In this document: in pieces, positions 1 to 11,342 of the stretch
Numbering within the stretch: the first letter of the stretch is position 1
How the letters are laid out: each line of letters begins with the position of its first letter
Assembly: GCA_016839815.1 (NCBI GenBank)
Contig: JAEOTM010000182.1
Span: 1-11,668, forward strand
Direction of reading: 5' to 3'
DNA from: Candidatus Hodarchaeota archaeon
Lineage (GTDB): Archaea > Asgardarchaeota > Heimdallarchaeia > Hodarchaeales > Hodarchaeaceae
Length of the DNA: 11,668 nucleotides
Made by a program: the position numbers and the translations under genes
The notes under the pieces: model-generated
The model's database searches: none
The model's input: only the letters and a program-made list of their open reading frames with translations
Told to the model about the DNA's origin: nothing

Positions 1-22
1 AAAAACGAAATTTTACTTTCAT
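1..22 (-). CDS. possible 5' end of a divergent gene running off the window (MKVKFRF...)
   Basis: Minus-strand ATG at 22-20, preceded by AAGGATTGACCGACTT and open to the window edge. Only 7 codons are visible, so no product can be assigned. Confidence 0.3.
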
Positions 23-308
23 AAGTCGGTCAATCCTTTGCTACGAAGCTAGTTTGTCGCTTTCAAACGAAGGACTTAGTTGAGAAATTTAAGTATTTTG
101 GAGTTCAGTAAGTAGTTATAATGTGGATATGCTTTTTCTAAAATTTGATCAAGATATATCTGAATAATCTATCATATGTCTTAACTCAAGAATAGGATTT
201 AAAAACCTCATCATCAAATCATGATTACAATTAAGATGAAATTACTGGTTTTACGATTCATCAAGTAGATTAGAAAGGATGATTCAAATACCACGAAGAG
301 GAAACGAA

Positions 309-590
309 ATGTTAAACTCCAAAAGAACACCCATGCTTGCACCACCACGAGCCGACAAAGAGTATGATATAAAAGTTTATACAGAAATTTGTGATGGGTG
401 TGAGTTGTGTGTAGAATTTTGTCCATGTGATGTCTTAGAGATAGACATGGATACGTATAATAGTCGAATGTTGCATCCAGTCAAAGTTATTGCTCTAGAT
501 AAGTGTACAGGATGTAAACAATGCGAACGGTTATGTCCAACGGTATCTATCATGATAATTGAAAAAGAAGTTCCTCAGGAGGATAAATGA
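309..590 (+). CDS. korD: 2x[4Fe-4S] ferredoxin, delta subunit of 2-oxoacid:ferredoxin oxidoreductase
   Basis: Two CxxCxxCxxxCP motifs (CDGCELCVEFCP, CTGCKQCERLCP). ATGA overlap with the alpha subunit at 587-590. Start 309 preferred because GAGG lies upstream; 279 and 333 are alternatives. Confidence 0.88.
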   Translation: MLNSKRTPMLAPPRADKEYDIKVYTEICDGCELCVEFCPCDVLEIDMDTYNSRMLHPVKVIALDKCTGCKQCERLCPTVSIMIIEKEVPQEDK

Positions 591-1753
591 TGGCAACCAC
601 AAGTGATAAATCAAATAAATCAAAACTGATTTTAACAACGGGTAACTATGCTTCAGCTGAGGGTGCAATCGCAGTTGGTTGTCGCTTCTTTGCAGGTTAT
701 CCTATTACTCCATCTTCAGAGATAGCTCATTATATGTCACGACGCTTACCCCAAGTGGGGGGTTCATTTGTCCAAATGGAAGATGAACTTGCATCAATTG
801 TGGCCGTTGTAGGTGCTTCTTATGCAGGTGCAAAGGCGATGACTGCAACTTCTGGACCTGGATTATCTTTGATGGCGGAAACTGTCGGGTTGGGATTTAT
901 GCTTGAAGCCCCTCTAGTTATAGTGACCGTTATGCGTGGTGGCCCGAGTACTGGTCAACCTACTAAAGCCTCACAATCTGATGTAATGCAAACACGATAT
1001 CTATCACATGGAGACTATGAAACAATAGTTCTTGCACCATCTAGTGTACAGGAATGTTATGATTTTTCCATTCGGGCCTTTAATCTAGCAGAAAAATATA
1101 GAACGCCTGTTATTGTTGCATCGGATGGAATAACAGGACAAATGATGGAACCAGTTTCTTATCATTCAAATTTTGAAGTTATTAACAGGAAAGGACCACA
1201 AGTACCTCCAGACAAGTATCAGCCTTTCGAAATTATTGATGATGATCTAATACCTGGAATGGCAACAGCAGGGACAGAATATAATTTCTACGTAACTGGA
1301 CTTACTCACGATGTAACTGGAAGTCCCGATATGACTCCTGAAACAGAAATCGCCCTTGTAAAACGGTTATGTGATAAAATAAGACGCGCTCGTCCCGTTA
1401 TAAATGATTGGGAAGAAATGTACTTAGATGATGCTGAAACAGTGATTCTTTCTTACGGGATAAATGCTCGGGGTAATCCCGAAGCTGTTGAACAAGCTCG
1501 GAAGATGGGTCATAAAGTAGGCTTAGTGAGACTCAAAACATTATGGCCGTTCCCTGATGAACTTATGGAACGACTAGGCAAATTGGGGATTAAGAAAGTC
1601 CTTGTTTCGGAAATGAATTATGGTCAACTCATTCGTGAGGTTGAAAGATTTAGACATCTAGGAATAGAAGTTTCGGGATTGTTAGTCCCTACCACTATAC
1701 CGTTTGCTCCAGGATTCATCTACGAAGCATTAATGAAGGAGGTAAAAAGATGA
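587..1753 (+). CDS. korA: 2-oxoacid (probably 2-oxoglutarate):ferredoxin oxidoreductase alpha subunit, without a fused gamma domain
   Basis: Motifs GNxAxAEGA, FFAGYPITPSSEI, QMEDE, TATSGPG, RGGPSTGQPT and EMNYGQ. 388 aa. SD AGGAGG. Confidence 0.93.
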   Translation: MMATTSDKSNKSKLILTTGNYASAEGAIAVGCRFFAGYPITPSSEIAHYMSRRLPQVGGSFVQMEDELASIVAVVGASYAGAKAMTATSGPGLSLMAETVGLGFMLEAPLVIVTVMRGGPSTGQPTKASQSDVMQTRYLSHGDYETIVLAPSSVQECYDFSIRAFNLAEKYRTPVIVASDGITGQMMEPVSYHSNFEVINRKGPQVPPDKYQPFEIIDDDLIPGMATAGTEYNFYVTGLTHDVTGSPDMTPETEIALVKRLCDKIRRARPVINDWEEMYLDDAETVILSYGINARGNPEAVEQARKMGHKVGLVRLKTLWPFPDELMERLGKLGIKKVLVSEMNYGQLIREVERFRHLGIEVSGLLVPTTIPFAPGFIYEALMKEVKR

Positions 1754-2619
1754 TGACATCAGAGGAAGAATGGGGTACTCCAGAACTTGATTACCCAGAG
1801 GAACATCCTTTACACGGTAGATTAAATCTCAATCGATTTATCTTCTGTGCGGGGTGTTTAATAGGCACTGCAATTACGTCGATTACTACCTGTTTAGTAG
1901 AAAGAGGATTAACTCCGAAAGATTATGCAATAGTATCAGGAATTGGGTGTACAGGAAGAACGAGTGGATGTTTCAAAGCTCCTGCATTTCATGCAACCCA
2001 TGGAAGAGCTATTCCATTTGCTACAGGATTAAAGCTTGCAAATCCAGATCTTGAGGTTTTTGTACTTTCAGGCGACGGTGATTTGTTCGCAATAGGTGGA
2101 AATCACTTTATTCATGCGTGTCGACGCAATATAGAGATTAATGTAATAGCCAACAATAATGGAATATACGGAATGACCGGAGGGCAGTTAGCACCTACTA
2201 CTTCAATAGGTGACCTCACTAGCACTTCCCCTTATGGAAACATTGAGCCTCCTTTCAATCTTGTTTCGCTAGCGGCAGCAGCAGGCGCTTCTTTCGTTGC
2301 ACGTTGGCCAGGTTATGATACTCTTCGATTGAGAGAAAGTATCTTCAAAGCGATGGATAATCCTGGTTTTAGCTTCATCGAGGTTCTCGCTCCTTGTTTC
2401 ACGCAGTATGGACGAAAGAACAAACTTGGTGATGCGGTGAAAATGTTAGAATGGCTTCGTGAGCAGGTAGTAATTGATAAGAATTGTCCTCCTCAAGAAG
2501 CAGAGTATTCTCACGAAAGCAAGAGGATAGTATGTGGGGAATTTGTAAATAATCCACGGGAAGGATTTACACAAAAACTCAAACGACTCAATGAGACAGC
2601 ACAAAGCAGGAGAAAGTAA
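1750..2619 (+). CDS. korB: 2-oxoacid:ferredoxin oxidoreductase beta subunit (TPP-binding)
   Basis: IFCAGC, SGIGC, HGRAIPFATG, TPP motif GDGD...NNGIYGMTGGQ, C-terminal PC cluster ligand. ATGA overlap with korA. SD AAGGAGGT. Confidence 0.93.
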   Translation: MMTSEEEWGTPELDYPEEHPLHGRLNLNRFIFCAGCLIGTAITSITTCLVERGLTPKDYAIVSGIGCTGRTSGCFKAPAFHATHGRAIPFATGLKLANPDLEVFVLSGDGDLFAIGGNHFIHACRRNIEINVIANNNGIYGMTGGQLAPTTSIGDLTSTSPYGNIEPPFNLVSLAAAAGASFVARWPGYDTLRLRESIFKAMDNPGFSFIEVLAPCFTQYGRKNKLGDAVKMLEWLREQVVIDKNCPPQEAEYSHESKRIVCGEFVNNPREGFTQKLKRLNETAQSRRK

Positions 2620-2621
2620 CA

Positions 2622-5012
2622 ATGACAGAAAGCGTAGATCAGACTGAACAAGAAGTGAAAGTAGGAGTTTTTCTATGCAAATGTGGAAAAAACATTGCAG
2701 GGTCAGTTGATATAGATAAAATTGCAGAGGAAATCAAAGATTTACCTAATGTTGAACTGGTTCAGGTTAATACTTATACTTGTTCAGATCCTGGTCAGGT
2801 AGAGATTGAAACAGCGATCAAAGAACAAGGGATTGAAAAAATTGTTGTCTCAGCATGTTCTCCACGATTGCATGGGCCCACATGGAAGAAATTAATGAAA
2901 AGAAGTGGGATGAATCCAGAAGTTGTCGAAGTAGCTAATATTCGAGAACAGTGTTCATGGGTGCATCTTCATGAAAAGGAAGAAGCTACGCTGAAAGCCA
3001 TGGAATTAACTGAAATGGCGGTAGCTAAAGCCGCAATGCTTGAACCAGCTGAAGCAACAGTCGTTCCTGTGGAAAAAAGAGTGTTGATTATCGGTGGTGG
3101 TGTGGCTGGAATACAAGCTGGATTGGATTTAGCAGATGATTACAAGGTTGTCATGGTAGAAAAAAGTCCTACCATTGGTGGGAATATGGCTTTGATAGAT
3201 AAAACTTTTCCCACTATGGATTGTAGTATCTGCATTCTTGGACCTAAAATGGCCGATGTAGGAAACCATGATAATATCTCCTTGATAGCCAATGCTGAAG
3301 TCACTAAGATTTCTGGGTATGTAGGAAATTTCCAGGTAGAAGTAACTAAGCAACCCCAATATGTTGAAGAAGATCTTTGTACAGCGTGTAATGACTGTGT
3401 GGACATCTGTCCAGTAAATGTAATTGATGAATATTCAGGTAATTTAGGATGGAGAAAAGCCATCTATATTCCATATCCTCAGGCGGTACCTGCCAGCTAC
3501 ATCATTGACACTGACAATTGTTTGGGATTAGATGTGCTAGCATGTGGAAAATGCAAGGGTACCTGTGAGAAAGAGGCCATTAATTACGAAGATAATGTGA
3601 AAACTTATAAATATAAAGTTGGAACTATTATTATATCCACTGGATTTGAGATGTTTGATGCTTCGAAAATTCCAGAATATGGATGGGGCCACTATCCAAA
3701 TGTAGTCACCACATTCGAATTTGAACGTTTGATTAACGCTGCGGGTCCAACTTCAGGAGATCTGGTTCGACCTAGCGACCTTAAACGTCCAAAAAGTGTA
3801 GCTTTCATTCAATGTGTTGGATCACGAGATCAACGGTATAATCCATATTGTTCTAATTTCTGTTGTATGGAGAGTATCAAGGATACATTACTAATAAAGG
3901 AACATTGGCCAGATGTAGAGGTTTCTGTATTCTTTATTGACATTCGGGCATTTGGAAAAGGATTCGAGGAACTTTATACACGCTCTCGACGCGAAGGTGT
4001 TAAATATATCCGTGGACGTCCATCACAAGTTCAACAGGTGGGTCCAAGTAATAATTTACTAGTATCTGTTGAGGACACTCGGATTGGGGAATTAATCAAC
4101 CGAGAATATGAGATGGTGGTACTTTCGATTGGTGCTGATGGACCAAGTTCTAATGTTCCTTTCCCTGTAGCCAAAGACACTCATAATTATTATATTGAAT
4201 CACATCCCAAACTTCGCCCTGTAGATACACCAACTGATGGTATATTCATTGCAGGTGGAGCTGAATCACCTAAGGATATTCGTGAGGCAGTTACTCAAGC
4301 AAGTGCCGCTGCTGGACGTGTAACTAGAGTTTTAACTAAAGGTGAATTCTCAGTAGAGCCCTTATACGCCGTTGTCAATCAGGAACTCTGTAACTCATGT
4401 GGCATTTGTGCTACACGATGTCCTTATAATGCAATAACCGTAGACAAGGTGAAAAAGACTCCCGCACACGTCATTCCTGTTTTATGTAAAGGATGTGGGA
4501 CTTGTGCAGCAGATTGTCCTCAAGACGCCATAATGATGACCAATTTCACAGATGCAATGATTTTACGACAGGTAGATATTGCATTACGAGATAATGCAGA
4601 TGAAAAGGTCATGATTTTTGCATGCAATTGGTGTTCTTACGGTGGAGCTGATCTGGCTGGTACCAGTCGAATTCAATATCCCACAAACTCACGCGTCGTC
4701 CGAGTGATGTGTTCTGGGAGAATTGATGTCGATTTTATCAAACGAGCATTTGAGCTTGGAGCAGGATCAGTTATGTTGACAGGTTGTCATCCTCAAGATT
4801 GTCATTATATTTCAGGGAATGATTTCGCCATTAAACGGGAACGAAAGATTCGCCGTTGGATGAAGAAACAGGGAATAGATGATGAACGTTTTCTTATTGA
4901 GTGGATGTCTGCTGCTGAAGGAAAGAAGTTCGCTGATGTAGTTACAAAGATGGCTGGGATTGCTAAGAAAAATCATAAAGCCAAACATGTTTCTGAGAAA
5001 GCAATAGCATAA
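2622..5012 (+). CDS. hdrA: heterodisulfide reductase subunit A-like flavoprotein fused to a C-terminal MvhD/FlpD [2Fe-2S] domain
   Basis: N-domain CKCGKNI/CSDPGQ/ACSP/NIREQCSWVH; FAD motif GGGVAG; DKTFPTMDCSICIL; inserted ferredoxin CTACNDCVDICP; QCVGSRD..YCSNFCCM; C-terminal ferredoxin CNSCGICATRCP/CKGCGTCAADCP; MvhD motifs FACNWCSYGGADLAG, RVMCSGR, GCHPQDCHY (about 4600-5012). Confidence 0.95.
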   Translation: MTESVDQTEQEVKVGVFLCKCGKNIAGSVDIDKIAEEIKDLPNVELVQVNTYTCSDPGQVEIETAIKEQGIEKIVVSACSPRLHGPTWKKLMKRSGMNPEVVEVANIREQCSWVHLHEKEEATLKAMELTEMAVAKAAMLEPAEATVVPVEKRVLIIGGGVAGIQAGLDLADDYKVVMVEKSPTIGGNMALIDKTFPTMDCSICILGPKMADVGNHDNISLIANAEVTKISGYVGNFQVEVTKQPQYVEEDLCTACNDCVDICPVNVIDEYSGNLGWRKAIYIPYPQAVPASYIIDTDNCLGLDVLACGKCKGTCEKEAINYEDNVKTYKYKVGTIIISTGFEMFDASKIPEYGWGHYPNVVTTFEFERLINAAGPTSGDLVRPSDLKRPKSVAFIQCVGSRDQRYNPYCSNFCCMESIKDTLLIKEHWPDVEVSVFFIDIRAFGKGFEELYTRSRREGVKYIRGRPSQVQQVGPSNNLLVSVEDTRIGELINREYEMVVLSIGADGPSSNVPFPVAKDTHNYYIESHPKLRPVDTPTDGIFIAGGAESPKDIREAVTQASAAAGRVTRVLTKGEFSVEPLYAVVNQELCNSCGICATRCPYNAITVDKVKKTPAHVIPVLCKGCGTCAADCPQDAIMMTNFTDAMILRQVDIALRDNADEKVMIFACNWCSYGGADLAGTSRIQYPTNSRVVRVMCSGRIDVDFIKRAFELGAGSVMLTGCHPQDCHYISGNDFAIKRERKIRRWMKKQGIDDERFLIEWMSAAEGKKFADVVTKMAGIAKKNHKAKHVSEKAIA

Positions 5013-5016
5013 TTAA

Positions 5017-5048
5017 GCCTCTCTTTCCCCTTTTTTTTCATCTTTCTC
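5017..5048 (+). terminator. archaeal-type pyrimidine/oligo-T terminator of the kor-hdrA operon
   Basis: CCTCTCTTTCCCCTTTTTTTTCATCTTTCTC directly after the hdrA-mvhD stop codon. Confidence 0.6.
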
Positions 5049-5173
5049 AATGAAATTCTGTTGAAGGATATGAGATTTTTTTTCTTGTAGATTCCTTCAG
5101 TGATAAAATTCAAATAGGTGAAATTCAACCTGAATAAGCTAAGTAATTTTTGGATCAGAAAAGGTGAGAAATT

Positions 5174-5719
5174 ATGAAATTTAAGATTATCTTAGGATTT
5201 TTAATACTAACTGCTTTTAGTTGCCAAATAACTACATCGTTTCCAACTAATGATGCATTTCCATATAAAATAACTTCCACAAATAGTGAAATACCAACTG
5301 GTTTTGAATTAGTAGATACATTTAATGAATCTCTATATGTGTTAGAACAACATTGGAAGACTCCTTCGGATCCAGATGGTTATACAATCTTATCAGTTGA
5401 AGATTATAATACCTCATCTTTAGCAAAAACTACAATGGGTTTTAGCGAATGGTTTGCTGGAGATCCAGTCGAGGTTGAAGGTGCTGATCAAACAATTAAT
5501 GTCTCGTTCTTCGTAAACACAATAATGGCTCGAAAAGGGTCATTTATTGCATCTTGCTCGGATATTTGGAGTAGTGCTGAGGATGTAGTTACCCTTCTAG
5601 AATTACAGATCGCTATTCTTCCAGGCTCTGGTGGAGGTATCTCCGGCTTTACGATCATTTTTTCGATTTTCAGTGTCGGAGCTCTAGTCATTCTCTATAA
5701 GAAAACTAAGAGATATTAA
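5174..5719 (+). CDS. secreted/cell-surface protein with signal peptide and C-terminal xGF-CTERM-like membrane anchor
   Basis: N-terminal MKFK plus hydrophobic stretch. C-terminal Gly linker, ISGF, TM helix and basic tail (KKTKRY). Three N-x-S sequons (NES, NTS, NVS). SD AAGGTGA. Confidence 0.8.
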   Translation: MKFKIILGFLILTAFSCQITTSFPTNDAFPYKITSTNSEIPTGFELVDTFNESLYVLEQHWKTPSDPDGYTILSVEDYNTSSLAKTTMGFSEWFAGDPVEVEGADQTINVSFFVNTIMARKGSFIASCSDIWSSAEDVVTLLELQIAILPGSGGGISGFTIIFSIFSVGALVILYKKTKRY

Positions 5720-5946: not shown

Positions 5947-7878
5947 ATGGTTTCAATAGCAAAAAAAATTCTGCAAGATCATCTTGTTGAAGGGAAATAT
6001 GAAGTCGGAGAAGAAATCGGTATTCGTATTGACCATACCCTGACACAAGATGCCACAGGAACTATGGCCTACCTTCAATTCGAAGCCATGGGTCTGGATA
6101 AGGTTAAAACCGAACTATCTGTCTCGATTGTAGACCATAATACTACTCAATCAGACTTCAAAAACCCCGACGACCATAGATATTTACAATCTGTTGCTGC
6201 GAAATATGGAATCCAATTTTCACGACCTGGGAATGGTATCTGTCATCAAGTCTTTCTGGAGCGTTTTGCAACTCCCTCTAAAACCTTGATTGGGTCTGAT
6301 TCCCACACTCCTACCGCTGGGGGTATGGGAGCTATTGCTATAGGAGCAGGAGGATTGGATGTAGCTGTAGCAATGGGTGGTGGCCCTTTTTATTTAAAAA
6401 CTCCAAAAATTGTTGGTGTAAAATTAACTGGATCGCTACCTGATTATGTAGCTGCAAAAGATGTAATTTTAGAAGTACTCCGTCAAATTAATGTCAAAGG
6501 TGGAGTGGGAAAAATCCTTGAATATTATGGACCAGGTATAAAAACACTCTCAGTACCCGAAAGGGCTACAATAACGAACATGGGTGCCGAAACAGGAGCC
6601 ACGACTTCAATTTTTCCCTCTGATGAAGTAACAAAAGATTTTCTCAAATGGCAGAAACGAGAAGAAGATTGGGTGGAACTTCTACCTGGAGAAGACGACG
6701 ATTACGATGAAATCATCGAGATTGATCTTTCAGGACTTGAACCTCTTGTAGCGAAACCTCATTCCCCAGGGAAGGTTGTCCCACTATCTGAGCTCTATGG
6801 TATGAAAGTAGATCAGGTTGCCATTGGTTCTTGTACAAATAGCTCCCTAAAAGATATGCTTACAGTAGCTGCACTACTAAAAGGTCGAAAGATTCATTCA
6901 GATACAGTCTTAGGTATTTCTCCTGGATCACGACAGGTTCTGATGGAATTAGCCAAGAATGGATCACTAGCTGATGCAATTACTGCAGGAGCACGAATTC
7001 TTGAAAGTGCCTGTGGTCCTTGTATTGGAATGGGTTTTGCTCCAAAAACTGATGCAGTAGTGGTTCGTACATTTAATCGTAACTTCTTCGGACGGACTGG
7101 AACCAAAAGTGCTAATGCGTATCTTGTGAGTCCTGAAGTAGCAGTTGCTGCTGCAGTGTTTGGTGAATTTACAGATCCCACAAAATTAGGAGAATATCCG
7201 AAAGTTGAGATTCCTAAGGAAATAGAGATTGATGATTCAATGATTCTTCAACCTTCTTCCTCACCGACCGATGTGTTAATTGTTCGGGGGCCAAATATAG
7301 CTCCCCTACCAGAATTCCAACCGCTCCAAGATGATTTTGAGTTTAGAGTCCTCATTAAAGCAGAAGATGATGTCACAACTGATCATATCATGCCAGCAGG
7401 CTCCAAAATTCTACCACTTCGATCTAATTTACCAGAAATAAGTAAACATGTCTTTGAGCAGGTAGATGCTACTTTCCCAGAAAGAGCTCTTAAGAGTAAG
7501 GAAGAAGGTGGTGGTATTATTATCGGTGGTGAAAATTATGGTCAAGGATCTAGTCGTGAGCATGCTGCCTTGGCTCCTATGTATCTAGGAATCAAAACCG
7601 TTCTGACTAAATCATTTGCTCGTATACATCGAGATAATCTGGTGAATTTCGGAATACTCCCCTTAACTTTTAAAACTAACGAAGATTATGATCGAATTAG
7701 GAGTGACGATATTCTCGAAATTAAGGGAGCTAGAAAGGCACTTAAAGAGAACTTACCTATTTCTGTTCATAATCGAACTCAAAACTTCGATATAGAAACA
7801 TCCTATGACTTCTCACAACGTGAACGGGAAATTCTGCTTGCAGGTGGAAAGTTGAGTTATACTGTTGCTTCCTCGTAA
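5947..7878 (+). CDS. acn: aconitate hydratase, single-chain ~640 aa Aquifex/archaeal type
   Basis: QDATGT, VDHN, GNGICH, GSDSHT, [4Fe-4S] ligands IGSCTN and ACGPCIGMG, FNRNF, swivel domain TTDHI and NYGQGSSREHA. Confidence 0.92.
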   Translation: MVSIAKKILQDHLVEGKYEVGEEIGIRIDHTLTQDATGTMAYLQFEAMGLDKVKTELSVSIVDHNTTQSDFKNPDDHRYLQSVAAKYGIQFSRPGNGICHQVFLERFATPSKTLIGSDSHTPTAGGMGAIAIGAGGLDVAVAMGGGPFYLKTPKIVGVKLTGSLPDYVAAKDVILEVLRQINVKGGVGKILEYYGPGIKTLSVPERATITNMGAETGATTSIFPSDEVTKDFLKWQKREEDWVELLPGEDDDYDEIIEIDLSGLEPLVAKPHSPGKVVPLSELYGMKVDQVAIGSCTNSSLKDMLTVAALLKGRKIHSDTVLGISPGSRQVLMELAKNGSLADAITAGARILESACGPCIGMGFAPKTDAVVVRTFNRNFFGRTGTKSANAYLVSPEVAVAAAVFGEFTDPTKLGEYPKVEIPKEIEIDDSMILQPSSSPTDVLIVRGPNIAPLPEFQPLQDDFEFRVLIKAEDDVTTDHIMPAGSKILPLRSNLPEISKHVFEQVDATFPERALKSKEEGGGIIIGGENYGQGSSREHAALAPMYLGIKTVLTKSFARIHRDNLVNFGILPLTFKTNEDYDRIRSDDILEIKGARKALKENLPISVHNRTQNFDIETSYDFSQREREILLAGGKLSYTVASS

Positions 7879-8602: not shown

Positions 8603-8812
8603 TTAGCGTCGTGTTAATCGAATAAGGACAAATATACCTGGTACAACAACAAAGACTAAACTCGCAATTAGTATTGCTACAATCAAAGTAGAACCATCAG
8701 AATTAGTAGATGCGGCGGGTTCAGTTGTTCTCAGAATAAAATTTACGAAAAAGAATATTATACCCATTATTAAAAGAAAACTGGCAATGGCCACTCTATA
8801 TACTTTATTCAA
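8603..8812 (-). CDS. small hypothetical membrane protein (2-TM hairpin)
   Basis: 69 aa with two hydrophobic helices joined by an S/T-rich loop and basic termini. TTG start. Fills the gap between genes without overlap. Confidence 0.6.
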   Translation of the reverse strand: MNKVYRVAIASFLLIMGIIFFFVNFILRTTEPAASTNSDGSTLIVAILIASLVFVVVPGIFVLIRLTRR

Positions 8813-8861
8813 GTAATCACGTACCTTTTACTGAACGAATTGAGAATTTGTAAATAACTTA

Positions 8862-9311
8862 TTATTTCCCACTTTGATTAATAATTTGTTGATCAGTTTC
8901 AGAATGAATATGTGCATGGAAATTTGTAGAAGCACAACTTTCGCAATTAAGCATAGTTTCCTCCTTCTCTGGAAATCTCCAGGTATGTCCACAATCGTCA
9001 CAGTGGTAAAAATTCACGGGATTAGATATTCGAATGGCGTATCCTAATACCAGAGCTTCGGCAATTTTTCTGTGAGCTCTCTCTAAATGTCGTGAAACAC
9101 TTGATTGCGATATCTTCATCTGTTCAGCCACTTCTTCTTGTTTTAATCCCTCTAAATCTGTTAGACGCATAGATTCTAACTCTTCCAAGGTAATATCTAC
9201 CTGACCCAGGATATCCTTCATAGGAATTCCTCGTGGTTTAAAATAAAAATGTGCTGGGTCGCACTTGATATTTCTGGGACTTTTTGGGCGTGGTAAGGTA
9301 ATCAACTCCAC
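8862..9311 (-). CDS. DUF134 (UPF0251) HTH protein with C-terminal Zn ribbon
   Basis: PRPKSPR, YFKPRGIP, LEELESMRLTDLEGLKQEEVAEQMKISQSSVSRHLERAHRKIAEAL; C-terminal CDDCGHTW...CESC. Start is GTG 9311 or TTG 9305. Confidence 0.9.
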   Translation of the reverse strand: MELITLPRPKSPRNIKCDPAHFYFKPRGIPMKDILGQVDITLEELESMRLTDLEGLKQEEVAEQMKISQSSVSRHLERAHRKIAEALVLGYAIRISNPVNFYHCDDCGHTWRFPEKEETMLNCESCASTNFHAHIHSETDQQIINQSGK

Positions 9312-9419
9312 GACTGGACGAACTGGTAATTAAATCCTTTTTGACAATGTAGGTAATTTAAGGTTGATGAATCAAACAATCATAAATTCATCACAATGAC
9401 CGAGTATGACAACGGTTTT

Positions 9420-9959
9420 TTAGGATTTTCTAAACGAAAGGATTCCATTTTTTTCATGAAGAAAACTAAAGGAATGTTCTTCAAGGATCTTAATTAGCTT
9501 CTTCCTTGATGATTTTATTGAAACTCTACCTTTTTCTCGTAAAACACGACGTATTTCCTTTAAAACATTTTTCAATAATATTTCATCTCGTAAAAGTCTT
9601 GGTACCCCGAAAAAAAATGCTAGATCAATACTTTGTTCAGTAAGACCTGTATCAGTTGCACTAGCTTCAATAGGGATGATATTCGATAATGAATGCATTT
9701 CCATTTTCTCCTTTACTCTTTTAATTGCCAATGGATGAATATCTAGTGCATAGACTAATCCATCAGTACCTGTAATTTCGGAGCAAGGGAGTGTGAAAAA
9801 ACCTGGACCACATCCGACTTCGAGCACGCTTTGACCTGACTTAATACCCGCATTTTCTAAAGTCTGATAAGGATTCGAGAATTTTCTCCGAAGTGAATTA
9901 TCATGAATCAAGGACATCATCTTAAAGGCCCAATTCGGTCCATGAATATTCTGATTCAT
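9420..9959 (-). CDS. class I SAM-dependent methyltransferase (UbiE-like, Methyltransf_11/31 type)
   Basis: Motif I VLEVGCGPG, VYALDI, SIDL, EIRRVLREKG. Confidence 0.9.
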   Translation of the reverse strand: MNQNIHGPNWAFKMMSLIHDNSLRRKFSNPYQTLENAGIKSGQSVLEVGCGPGFFTLPCSEITGTDGLVYALDIHPLAIKRVKEKMEMHSLSNIIPIEASATDTGLTEQSIDLAFFFGVPRLLRDEILLKNVLKEIRRVLREKGRVSIKSSRKKLIKILEEHSFSFLHEKNGILSFRKS

Positions 9960-10012
9960 ATTTTGGACCTTCCATAGGAAGAAAAAAAGGACTTGAATTT
10001 ATCTAAGAGAGA

Positions 10013-10348
10013 TTATACTTCATCTTTCTTTGATAAACTCTTAAGTCTCTTTTCAATATTTTCAATTTCTTGCTTCAAGTGATTCATAGACTCCTCAAGA
10101 TATTGTTTTTCATCTTCAGGGCCAATTTGACTAAATTTAGGAGGATAAAATATTCGCGGATCAGGAAAACCTATCGATCTTCCTCGAAATCTACCTCTTC
10201 CCCATCCTCGTCCTCCTCCATATCCACGACCCCATCCCATTCCACCTCCTTTAGTGTATCCAGGTGAAGTATCACCCGAACAGAAACCCAGTCCCCTTCC
10301 TGTTCGAGGTCCTTGTTCCCAAGGCCCCGTCCTATCTCCTCTTGGCAT
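10013..10348 (-). CDS. DUF5320 family protein (Gly/Arg-rich N-terminus, C-terminal coiled coil)
   Basis: Typical start MPRGDRTGPxxxGPRTGRGLGFC, a GRG-rich tract and the coiled coil EKQYLEESMNHLKQEIENIEKRL. The real start is probably ATG 10348 (SD GGTGA at 10358-10354), not 10375. Confidence 0.88.
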   Translation of the reverse strand: MPRGDRTGPWEQGPRTGRGLGFCSGDTSPGYTKGGGMGWGRGYGGGRGWGRGRFRGRSIGFPDPRIFYPPKFSQIGPEDEKQYLEESMNHLKQEIENIEKRLKSLSKKDEV

Positions 10349-10357
10349 TTTTATCAC

Positions 10358-10377
10358 CAATGAGCTATTGAACAAAA
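10358..10377. promoter_or_regulatory. putative operator, copy 1
   Basis: CAATGAGCTATTGAACAAAA. 10361-10379 matches the reverse complement of 10538-10556 at 18/19 positions. Confidence 0.6.
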
Positions 10378-10379
10378 CT

Positions 10380-10387
10380 GTATATAA
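10380..10387 (-). promoter_or_regulatory. TATA box of the DUF5320 transcript
   Basis: Minus-strand TTATATAC about 32-39 nt upstream of ATG 10348, preceded by an A-rich BRE-like CACAAAAC. Confidence 0.6.
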
Positions 10388-10388
10388 G

Positions 10389-10408
10389 TTTTGTGCTATT
10401 GCACAAAA
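10389..10408. promoter_or_regulatory. putative operator, copy 2 (perfect 8-4-8 inverted repeat)
   Basis: TTTTGTGC-TATT-GCACAAAA. 15/17 identical to copy 1 and offset by 31 bp. Confidence 0.7.
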
Positions 10409-10539
10409 ACTAAAATTTCACCTTAGAATAATTCTAGTCTAAATTTTTATTTTGATTCTAATTTTGTTGCTTCTATTGAGCGATCAGGAGGGAAAACTTA
10501 ATTAAGTTCTAATTATTTGAAAACTAATAGATAAAAAAG

Positions 10540-10559
10540 TTTTGTTCAATCGCTCAGCT
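10540..10559. promoter_or_regulatory. putative operator, copy 3 (inverted), upstream of the plus-strand DUF134
   Basis: TTTTGTTC-AATC-GCTCAGCT, the inverted near-copy of copy 1. Confidence 0.6.
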
Positions 10560-10603
10560 ATATGCTTAATTAGGTTAAAAGGGCTTTCTGGAGAAAAAAG
10601 AAT

Positions 10604-10924
10604 ATGAGAGATATTTATTCCGGACGAGGTAGAGGTGGTGGTAGAGGTCGTAGGTTTAGAGGGGGAAGACCACGAATACAACCTCGTATTGATTCCGAAT
10701 GGAGTTCTACAACTGGTGAAACAATTCTTAAGATCACTACCGTTGAGTTAGAAGCTCTTCGTCTGGTAGATAAGGAGGGTTTAACTCAGGAACAAGCAGC
10801 TACTCAAATGAATATTTCACGAGGTTCTTTATGGAGAATTCTTCAGGAAGCAAGAGCCAAAGTAATCACAGCTCTCACTGCGGGTAAAACACACATCAAT
10901 TTAGAGATAATTGAAAGAAAATAG
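10604..10924 (+). CDS. DUF134 (UPF0251) HTH protein with RG-rich N-terminus
   Basis: GRPR, ELEALRLVDKEGLTQEQAATQMNISRGSLWRILQEARAKVITAL. SD GGAG. Confidence 0.9.
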   Translation: MRDIYSGRGRGGGRGRRFRGGRPRIQPRIDSEWSSTTGETILKITTVELEALRLVDKEGLTQEQAATQMNISRGSLWRILQEARAKVITALTAGKTHINLEIIERK

Positions 10925-10946
10925 AGAACGAAAACGACACGAAAAG

Positions 10947-11342
10947 TTACTCTATTCCCGACACTCTAATAGGTTTGATTCTATAAATAACTCTAGTTTC
11001 TTCACTGGTTCTATAAGGATATGTTTCCATTCCAAGATATTTTTTTGCTAAAGTATCAATATGGTCATCAGCACCTTCAGTAGTACGCTCTTCAACTTTA
11101 CCTCTAATAGCTACATAGCTATAAGGATTATCTGGATCTTGGATGGATAGAGCAACATCAGAACGTGTTCTCATATTCCGATCTTTTAGGCGATCAATTG
11201 CCGTATTAACTTGTATTAGCTCATCCTTTACATCAAACCATACAGGTGTGGATTGAGGTGTTCCATCTGCCATAATAGTTGCTAGATGAGCAAATCCCTT
11301 TTTACTTAGTATTTTTTCAAATTTTTTAATCATAAAAGTCAA
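10947..11342 (-). CDS. PPOX-class (pyridoxamine 5'-phosphate oxidase-like) probable F420-dependent oxidoreductase
   Basis: AHLATIMADGTPQSTPVW, KDRNM, VALSIQDPDNPYSYVAIRG, LAKKY. Start is TTG 11342 or ATG 11333. Confidence 0.88.
   Translation of the reverse strand: MTFMIKKFEKILSKKGFAHLATIMADGTPQSTPVWFDVKDELIQVNTAIDRLKDRNMRTRSDVALSIQDPDNPYSYVAIRGKVEERTTEGADDHIDTLAKKYLGMETYPYRTSEETRVIYRIKPIRVSGIE

Follow-up and report, generated by a model that had tools for sequence, protein, structure and literature searches.

The window analysed here, 11,668 nucleotides of DNA, is the whole 11.7-kb contig (C161) of a Hodarchaeales metagenome-assembled genome (MAG; 4.24 Mb, 89.5% complete). It carries an operon in which the genes of a 2-oxoacid:ferredoxin oxidoreductase (Kor; korD, korA and korB) are followed directly by hdrA2, which encodes a fusion of the heterodisulfide reductase (Hdr) subunit HdrA with MvhD. 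The gene anatomy, the intact cofactor motifs and the conserved tight linkage of the two parts are observed directly. Judged from sequence, the chances are even that Kor and HdrA2 form one redox module in which KorD is wired to the low-potential clusters of HdrA2. The conservation of the linkage across dozens of Asgard genomes suggests that both enzymes work as one redox machine. The nearest public records to the window are Candidatus Hodarchaeota/Heimdallarchaeota MAGs, with HdrA2 identity of up to 96%. On these records, a methanogen origin, which the HdrA2 match and a GC content of 40% could suggest, is rejected. The features of the operon and the aconitase gene beyond it are as follows.

1-22, minus strand: start of korG/korC (codons 1-7, MKVKFRF), gamma subunit, divergent from korD and truncated at the contig end
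23-308, no strand: AT-rich intergenic stretch that separates the divergent genes korG and korD, read from the sequence and by motif scan
309-590, plus strand: korD, delta subunit, 93 aa, ferredoxin-type with two [4Fe-4S] motifs
587-1753, plus strand: korA, alpha subunit, 388 aa, 2-oxoacid:ferredoxin oxidoreductase (OFOR) domains I and II
1750-2619, plus strand: korB, beta subunit, 289 aa, thiamine pyrophosphate (TPP)-binding domain
2622-5012, plus strand: hdrA2, HdrA-MvhD fusion, 796 aa, with FAD site, six four-cysteine cluster motifs and C-terminal MvhD domain
5031-5038 and 5076-5083, plus strand: two T8 runs, at which the operon probably ends in an archaeal oligo-T terminator
5947-7878, plus strand: aconitate hydratase, 643 aa (NCBIfam NF005558; 963 bits, cut-off 612), outside the operon

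The korB gene lies directly 5' of hdrA2 in all 49 Asgard-type loci whose contig extends far enough, and the gap between the two is -8 to 32 nt in 48 of these 49 (MAGs labelled Hod, Loki, Thor or Hermod). An even sample of 251 Asgard genomes was also surveyed, 73 of which have an HdrA2-type match (E-value ≤1e-250); KorB of at least 68% identity adjoins HdrA2 in every one of the 26 sampled genomes that hold it. A first-pass annotation of this DNA had drawn attention to korA and korB beside hdrA-mvhD, and the arrangement proved to be strongly conserved, both within Hodarchaeales and among MAGs labelled Loki, Thor or Hermod. In a tree, the kor-linked HdrA2 proteins of Hodarchaeales and Loki-type MAGs form one tight clade, the sister group of which comprises an hdrA2-hdrC-hdrB family and one genome with korD-korA-korB::G-hdrA2-hdrC-hdrB. 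The operons of Hodarchaeales and Loki-type MAGs are 74-75% identical, far above the 45-57% identity to other Heimdallarchaeia, which suggests that the operon was transferred between Asgard classes as one unit. Three loci under bacterial MAG names (L056, L059 and L062; Nanopelagicaceae, Desulfobacterales and Rhodobacteraceae) carry an Asgard-type hdrA2 (70-73% identity) and are probably mis-binned Asgard contigs. Genes korDAB lie upstream in L056 and L059; L062 shows no kor match in the 243 bp upstream of hdrA2.

Kor and HdrA genes are also found together, and hdrA2 beside a polyferredoxin gene, in other layouts.

L101, another Asgard class: hdrA2-korDABG
L102, a Heimdallarchaeial genome: korDA(B::G)-hdrA2-hdrC-hdrB
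L103, another Heimdallarchaeial family: korDABG-hdrA-mvhD-mvhG-mvhA-hycI-hdrC-hdrB
L104, another Heimdallarchaeial family: korDABG-mvhD-(three Flx-like genes)-hdrA-hdrC-hdrB-(Fe-S and FAD_binding_2, Tfr/Frd-like)
L085, a bacterium (Fibrobacteraceae-labelled MAG): korABG-giant HdrA-mvhD-hdrCB fusion-hdrA2-hdrC-hdrB
L089, Bathyarchaeia: polyferredoxin directly before hdrA2, in the upstream slot held here by kor

Partial tblastn matches suggest a layout similar to that of L085 in six further bacterial loci (L078, L082, L086, L088, L095 and L098; labelled Fibrobacteraceae, Planctomycetota or unclassified bacterium). A link between Kor and HdrA that is old and has been repeatedly maintained supports a functional unit. 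The first-pass annotation had cast Kor as the partner module on MvhD, in place of a hydrogenase, formate dehydrogenase (Fdh) or Flx. This is unlikely, as L103 and L104 carry Kor plus mvhDGA or Flx-like genes and hdrCB. Because these relatives hold Kor in addition to MvhAG or Flx and HdrBC, a place for Kor on the ferredoxin arm of HdrA, its low-potential branch, is more likely than one on MvhD as a docked donor. In Mvh-Hdr, free ferredoxin serves this arm; in the complex of Hdr with formylmethanofuran dehydrogenase (Fmd), a polyferredoxin does so. The earlier analogy to Hdr-Fmd complexes is apt in so far as it matches Kor on the low-potential branch; the direction, reductive carboxylation or oxidation, is not decided by the evidence.

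KorD contains two CxxCxxCxxxCP motifs, the cysteines of which (C28, C31, C34 and C38; C66, C69, C72 and C76) are invariant in 28 sequences. This protein matches Pfam Fer4 families, and its best NCBIfam model is OGOR_delta/OorD (50.9 bits, below the cut-off of 125). KorA has the domains POR_N (232.4 bits) and PFOR_II (59.8 bits) and passes NCBIfam NF006412 (2-oxoacid:acceptor oxidoreductase alpha subunit; 487.7 bits, cut-off 411), with the model for 2-oxoglutarate:ferredoxin oxidoreductase (OGOR/Oor) second-best (370.4 bits, cut-off 579). Its nearest solved chains are 1yd7, 8ys5_A (2-oxoglutarate synthase alpha) and 6n2n_A (Magnetococcus OGOR). KorB has the domain TPP_enzyme_C (112 bits) and is best matched among NCBIfam models by the 2-oxoglutarate ferredoxin oxidoreductase beta subunit (234.6 bits, under the cut-off of 364). 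Residues 30-245 of this protein align to its nearest solved chain, 8ys5_C, including the CxGC and GIGC(S/T)GR stretches. KorDABG can be classified provisionally as a four-subunit 2-oxoglutarate-type ferredoxin oxidoreductase, and its context (aconitase, methylmalonyl-CoA mutase and a Tfr-like gene) points to 2-oxoglutarate/succinyl-CoA as the substrate pair.

HdrA2 is, by its domains and motifs, a complete HdrA-MvhD flavoprotein with the cofactor motifs intact. Residues 10-659 align to HdrA of Methanothermococcus thermolithotrophicus (5odc_A, 723 bits) and residues 660-778 to solved MvhD chains, with the FlpD/MvhD profile (149.5 bits) at 663-778. The best NCBIfam model for the protein is NF040770 (HdrA2); its score of 1077 bits is narrowly under the cut-off of 1100, and the protein is therefore termed HdrA2-type here and not filed as an equivalog. 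Across 28 orthologues there is no variation in the FAD motif GGGVAGIQ, in the six four-cysteine cluster motifs, in the cysteines of MvhD or in the stretches FEFER and CCMESIK; we take the last two stretches to line the flavin in the 5ODC structure.

The junctions of the operon are close. The korD stop codon (TGA, 588-590) overlaps the korA start codon (ATG, 587-589) in an ATGA, the korA stop codon (1751-1753) overlaps the korB start codon (ATG, 1750-1752) in the same manner, and the korB stop codon (TAA, 2617-2619) is separated from the hdrA2 start codon (ATG, 2622) by 2 nt (2620-2621). A motif scan found Shine-Dalgarno-like sequences (GAGG, AGGAGG, GGAGG or AGGAG) 5-12 nt 5' of all four starts. 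Every junction is as described in the first-pass annotation, which had proposed coupling of the four genes through ATGA overlaps at 587 and 1750 and a 2-nt gap with Shine-Dalgarno sites. It had also proposed an oligo-T terminator after hdrA-mvhD. By T-run count, there is no run of at least six T on the plus strand within 1-5030, and the two T8 runs that follow the hdrA2 stop at 5012 are the only such runs within 1-5657; they would serve as this terminator. A TATA-like sequence (ATTTAAAA) was found by motif scan at 197-204 in the korG/korD intergenic region, and region 23-308 is presumed to hold the promoters of both genes. The korD start at 309 is favoured, as annotated at the outset, because all 27 orthologues examined open with MLxSKR. 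An alternative start at 279, from the longer mechanical open reading frame (ORF), is ruled out by these N-termini and by a stop codon in the upstream frame of the nearest relative.

The gamma subunit gene faces the other way. Bases 22-1 of the minus strand encode MKVKFRF, the N-terminus of a 187-aa PF01558 protein of the nearest relatives (L020 and L021), and the gene is therefore cut by the contig end. The gene list korD-korA-korB given earlier is correct for these three genes, but it omits this gamma gene. L020 and L021 have a complete gamma gene on the strand opposite to korD, some 260 bp upstream of it. The protein is 62-63% identical to a Loki/Thor-type PF01558 protein of 188 aa, the gene for which stands directly before korD, in the same direction, in loci labelled Loki or Thor. 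Elsewhere in the genus, genomes have a gamma orthologue that is unlinked to korD. The remainder of the gamma gene was not found in this assembly, and the four other PF01558 genes in the genome each lie beside their own alpha subunit gene. As hdrA2 follows korB at the place where oorC/korC sits in OorDABC-type operons, HdrA-MvhD might have been thought to replace gamma in a gamma-less oxidoreductase. The probability of this is very close to nil, given the gamma start in the window, the complete gene in relatives, its position 5' of korD in Loki and Thor loci and the unlinked copies in the genus; a Pfam search of HdrA2 gave no PF01558 match. In one Heimdallarchaeial genome, KorB and gamma are fused in a single 504-aa protein (L102:4935-6449, minus strand; TPP_enzyme_C and POR), encoded right before hdrA2-hdrC-hdrB.

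HdrA2 is one of many HdrA paralogues in the genome. Two paralogous Mvh-Hdr clusters of approximately 15-20 kb (C25:11000-24600 and C189:12000-32500) each encode mvhA, mvhD, a giant HdrA (1042-1046 aa) in which the domains are rearranged, an HdrA-MvhD fusion that shares 35% identity with the HdrA2 of the window, hdrC/hdrB and a CCG-domain HdrCB-like fusion. The earlier statement that hdrB/hdrC and mvhA/mvhG are lacking is accurate for the window, in which Pfam and NCBIfam profile matches of the encoded proteins revealed no hdrB/C, mvhA/G, fdh, flx or tfrAB, but not for the genome, which has these two clusters. The kor-linked hdrC/hdrB genes of relatives find their best matches in the genome among the C25 and C189 genes (33-41% identity). 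No orphan hdrCB dedicated to HdrA2 was found, although in an 89.5%-complete genome this does not show absence. The FO synthase gene cofH was likewise not found in this incomplete genome, which makes a role for F420 doubtful; two CofE-like genes are present. Contig C189 also encodes a fused gamma-alpha OFOR of the two-subunit type (41099-42460). In related Heimdallarchaeia, HdrA-MvhD paralogues that otherwise match over the full length contain in-frame TGA and in some cases TAG or TAA codons (G037:C1:142974-145322, G027:C3:1517-3859, G021:C128:2105-4456 and others); the in-frame TGA would fit the selenocysteine that has been reported in HdrA of Asgards.

The surroundings of the operon relate to the tricarboxylic acid (TCA) cycle. 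The aconitase gene is the next one after hdrA2 in L020 and lies no more than 2.5-4 kb from it in L021, L025, L027, L029 and L031. In Loki loci, a methylmalonyl-CoA mutase gene precedes korG, which would connect Kor, through its product succinyl-CoA, with the propionate pathway. In Loki-type loci (L040:78-2835), the operon follows genes for a small GTPase of the Ras family, a DUF35/OB-fold protein and the methylmalonyl-CoA mutase large subunit. The genome of the window carries citrate synthase, a CitF and citryl-CoA-lyase-like pair, SucC and several SdhA/FrdA-like genes. The citrate synthase is part of an unusual 618-aa fusion (L112:2257-4113, minus strand, on C135) in which a full synthase domain (398 bits) is joined to a PduL-type phosphate propanoyltransferase domain (PTAC, 239 bits). 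On C9 (L113:481-3046), CitF (citrate lyase alpha / citrate CoA-transferase) adjoins a protein of 255 aa whose match to citrate synthase is confined to the C-terminal half of the synthase; this citryl-CoA-lyase-like protein and CitF could be a pair for ATP-independent cleavage or synthesis of citrate.

The model that we propose for the operon is as follows. KorDAB and the divergently encoded KorG would form a four-subunit oxidoreductase of the 2-oxoglutarate:ferredoxin type, with korDAB and hdrA2 on one transcript and probably coupled in translation. Through its two clusters, KorD would link the TPP active site straight to the ferredoxin-side clusters of HdrA2, such that free ferredoxin would not be needed, in an arrangement like the polyferredoxin link between Hdr and Fmd. 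The flavin of HdrA2 would couple the electrons of Kor (about -500 mV) to two further partners. The partner on the MvhD domain would be a mid-potential, two-electron one, presumably MvhAG hydrogenase here and Flx/NADH in some relatives; the high-potential arm would be a thiol/disulfide couple reached through HdrBC encoded elsewhere. The physical contact of Kor and HdrA2, the recruitment of partners in trans and the reaction direction are what we infer, and the reaction is taken as reversible. In the oxidative, confurcating direction, 2-oxoglutarate and CoA would be converted to succinyl-CoA and CO2, and the electrons would be merged with thiol-derived ones to give H2 or another mid-potential product; the alternative would be reductive carboxylation driven by bifurcation. 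Textbook potentials permit both H2- or NADH-driven carboxylation of succinyl-CoA and the use of -500 mV electrons from 2-oxoglutarate to lift thiol-level electrons to H2 or NADH. We lean slightly towards the oxidative, confurcating direction in this heterotroph because of its TCA-type, amino-acid-degrading context (aconitase, methylmalonyl-CoA mutase in Loki loci, citrate synthase and the physiology of cultured Loki; PMC7015854).

The contact between KorD and HdrA2 was also modelled. The pair was submitted to complex prediction with each protein as a 28-row alignment (own alignments), under a 1000-residue limit. The prediction gave an ipSAE of 0.52 (runs 0.52, 0.56 and 0.46), compared with 0.00 for the best of three unrelated controls, with a partner pLDDT (predicted local distance difference test) of at least 76 and at least 60% of contacts shared between runs. 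In calibration, 58 of 80 solved complexes and 2 of 110 mismatched pairs passed the mark; just 7 of the 80 complexes did so with a value ≤0.60, as did both of the mismatched pairs. The likeness of the KorD ferredoxin fold to solved contacts of HdrA with ferredoxin domains may add to the score. Because the synteny prior is good, the score is counted as a slight plus and no more. The modelling of Kor with HdrA-MvhD that had been envisaged earlier, here of KorD with HdrA2, gave weak support for contact and no interface.

Several observations weigh against a single Kor-HdrA2 module acting on 2-oxoglutarate. The operon has neither hdrBC nor a gene for a mid-potential donor or acceptor, and all HdrB/C homologues found in the MAG (89.5% complete) are encoded next to HdrA-MvhD paralogues other than HdrA2. 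The TCA gene set (citrate synthase and the CitF and citryl-CoA-lyase-like pair) fits either direction. The OGOR-specific NCBIfam models are best for KorB and KorD, yet both scores are below the cut-offs, and 2-oxoglutarate specificity is not established by them. The HdrA2-KorD prediction is weak and returned no interface. The archetypal HdrA2, that of Methanosarcina acetivorans, takes its electrons from free ferredoxin (PMC5296606), and a diffusible link between Kor and HdrA2 would therefore suffice. On this last point rests the explanation that the two are coupled in function without forming a complex: Kor would reduce free ferredoxin, a co-regulated HdrA2 with HdrBC from elsewhere would re-oxidise it as a ferredoxin:disulfide oxidoreductase, and the shared operon would reflect nothing but a need for matched amounts. 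Besides the free-ferredoxin donor of the M. acetivorans HdrA2B2C2 (PMC5296606) and the weak complex prediction, many Asgard families that have hdrA2-hdrC-hdrB with no kor nearby speak for it. However, a junction of at most 32 nt in 48 of 49 loci, together with the re-invention of the linkage in other gene orders, exceeds usual co-regulation; the kor-linked HdrA2 clade has lost its adjacency to hdrCB, and in the complex prediction the true pair reached 0.52, compared with 0.00 for unrelated controls. We regard coupling of this kind as rather unlikely.

The lack of hdrBC could also mean that HdrA2 does not bifurcate at all. It would then convert one-electron to two-electron flow, with electrons passing from Kor to FAD to MvhD and on to a single acceptor, which might be MvhAG hydrogenase, F420 or NAD(P). 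The net activity would be that of a 2-oxoglutarate:acceptor oxidoreductase, with a logic like that of the NAD-linked phenylglyoxylate oxidoreductase. The operon is devoid of hdrBC throughout the Hod and Loki clade, this genome yielded no orphan hdrCB, the fused MvhD adaptor suggests a docking partner and two CofE-like genes are present. All six cluster motifs of bifurcating HdrA are nevertheless kept, those of both ferredoxin domains included, and the closest outgroups (L102, L106-L108 and L111) have hdrC-hdrB right after hdrA2; the failure to find cofH in the 89.5%-complete genome renders F420 a doubtful acceptor. A non-bifurcating outlet is accordingly quite improbable, and a module in which KorD feeds or drains the low-potential clusters of a bifurcating HdrA2 is preferred.

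The linkage of Kor with Hdr is not itself new, as it was proposed earlier for tubeworm symbionts as a biochemically untested model (PMC6315080, PMC11636981). In the reductive TCA (rTCA) gene cluster of the symbionts Ca. Endoriftia and that of Escarpia, and in Thioflavicoccus mobilis, korABCD is interleaved with flxABCD-hdrABC and tfrAB, and the Hdr bifurcating module is modelled to deliver electrons directly to OGOR for reductive carboxylation (PMC6315080); co-expression supports the cluster (PMC11636981). As in the window, where the gap is 2 nt, a four-subunit OGOR is contiguous with hdrA in these symbionts, and their gene content (kor, mvhD/flx-like, hdrACB and Tfr/Frd-like) is shared by L104. 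Unlike the symbiont cluster, the operon described here is archaeal, has an HdrA2-type protein with fused MvhD and a divergent korG, and is without flx, hdrBC and tfr. Its neighbours are aconitase (Hod) or methylmalonyl-CoA mutase (Loki) instead of ATP-citrate lyase, and its Hodarchaeales host is likely heterotrophic. On gene content, the Asgard operon would be a slimmed archaeal form, of the HdrA2 type, of this known linkage. A characterised Kor-HdrA complex was not found in the literature searched, in agreement with the first-pass annotation, nor was a description of an Asgard kor-hdrA2 operon, the search covering papers other than subscription-only ones. The Asgard papers covered by the search treat MvhADG-HdrABC, Flx-Hdr and 2-oxoacid oxidoreductases separately.

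The HdrA-MvhD fusion, which has homologues in non-methanogens, has been characterised in M. acetivorans as HdrA2B2C2 (MA2868 and MA4236/37; PMC5296606). The two proteins are alike as HdrA-MvhD fusions of approximately 790-800 aa with FAD, Fe-S and MvhD motifs, encoded apart from hdrBC. They also share an Fe-S protein gene directly upstream of hdrA2, which in M. acetivorans is presumably, and in Bathyarchaeia is, that of a polyferredoxin. Here, by contrast, the upstream partner is a TPP-dependent oxidoreductase, and the protein scores just under the NF040770 cut-off of 1100. The Hodarchaeales host is no methanogen, and CoM-S-S-CoB is not expected as a substrate; cofH was not found. Compared with MvhAGD-HdrABC and Fdh-Hdr-Fmd (5ODC, 7BKB, 8RVU), the HdrA part of the window protein aligns end to end with 5odc_A, and the idea is that of Hdr-Fmd, namely that ferredoxin-type clusters connect HdrA to a low-potential enzyme that fixes or releases CO2. 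In contrast to those complexes, MvhD is fused to HdrA, the operon is without mvhAG, fdh, fmd and hdrBC, and the proposed low-potential partner is Kor, for which there is no solved complex. Relative to OorDABC/KorDABG (8YS5), the delta, alpha, beta and gamma subunits have the expected domains, with 8ys5_C nearest to beta and 8ys5_A near to alpha. Unlike in OorDABC/KorDABG, gamma is divergently encoded, is unlinked in some genomes of the genus and does not follow beta, and the gene for a 796-aa flavoprotein is joined to korB.

Beyond hdrA2, the window encodes a small unassigned membrane-type ORF, the aconitase, a zinc-ribbon protein and a DUF134/DUF5320 group. The ORF between hdrA2 and aconitase (5174-5719, plus strand; 181 aa) has hydrophobic termini and no Pfam or NCBIfam match, and it looks recently inserted, because aconitase is directly 3' of hdrA2 in the nearest relative, L020. 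At 8603-11342, DUF5320, methyltransferase and DUF134 genes on the minus strand face a divergent second DUF134 gene (10604-10924), and a PNPOx-like gene lies at 10947-11342 (minus strand).

Asgard energy metabolism and the syntrophy models of eukaryogenesis centre on 2-oxoacid oxidation and the transfer of H2 or formate (PMC7015854). We hold it tentatively possible, at somewhat less than even chance, that Asgards of at least two classes own a dedicated Kor-HdrA2 supercomplex, in which a decarboxylase of the TCA cycle is hard-wired to flavin-based confurcation or bifurcation with MvhAG and HdrBC in trans. If so, the oxidation of 2-oxoglutarate would directly drive H2 production, or H2 would drive 2-oxoglutarate synthesis, and the supercomplex would be a new one central to the hydrogen-based syntrophy that has been invoked for the archaeal ancestor of eukaryotes. 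With Kor wired to HdrA, low-potential electrons would not simply pass through the free ferredoxin pool, and the predicted energetics, reversibility and H2 thresholds of the Asgard TCA branch would change. The genes korG, korD, korA, korB and hdrA2 form a compact five-gene target for an OGOR that may be driven or drained by flavin-based electron bifurcation.

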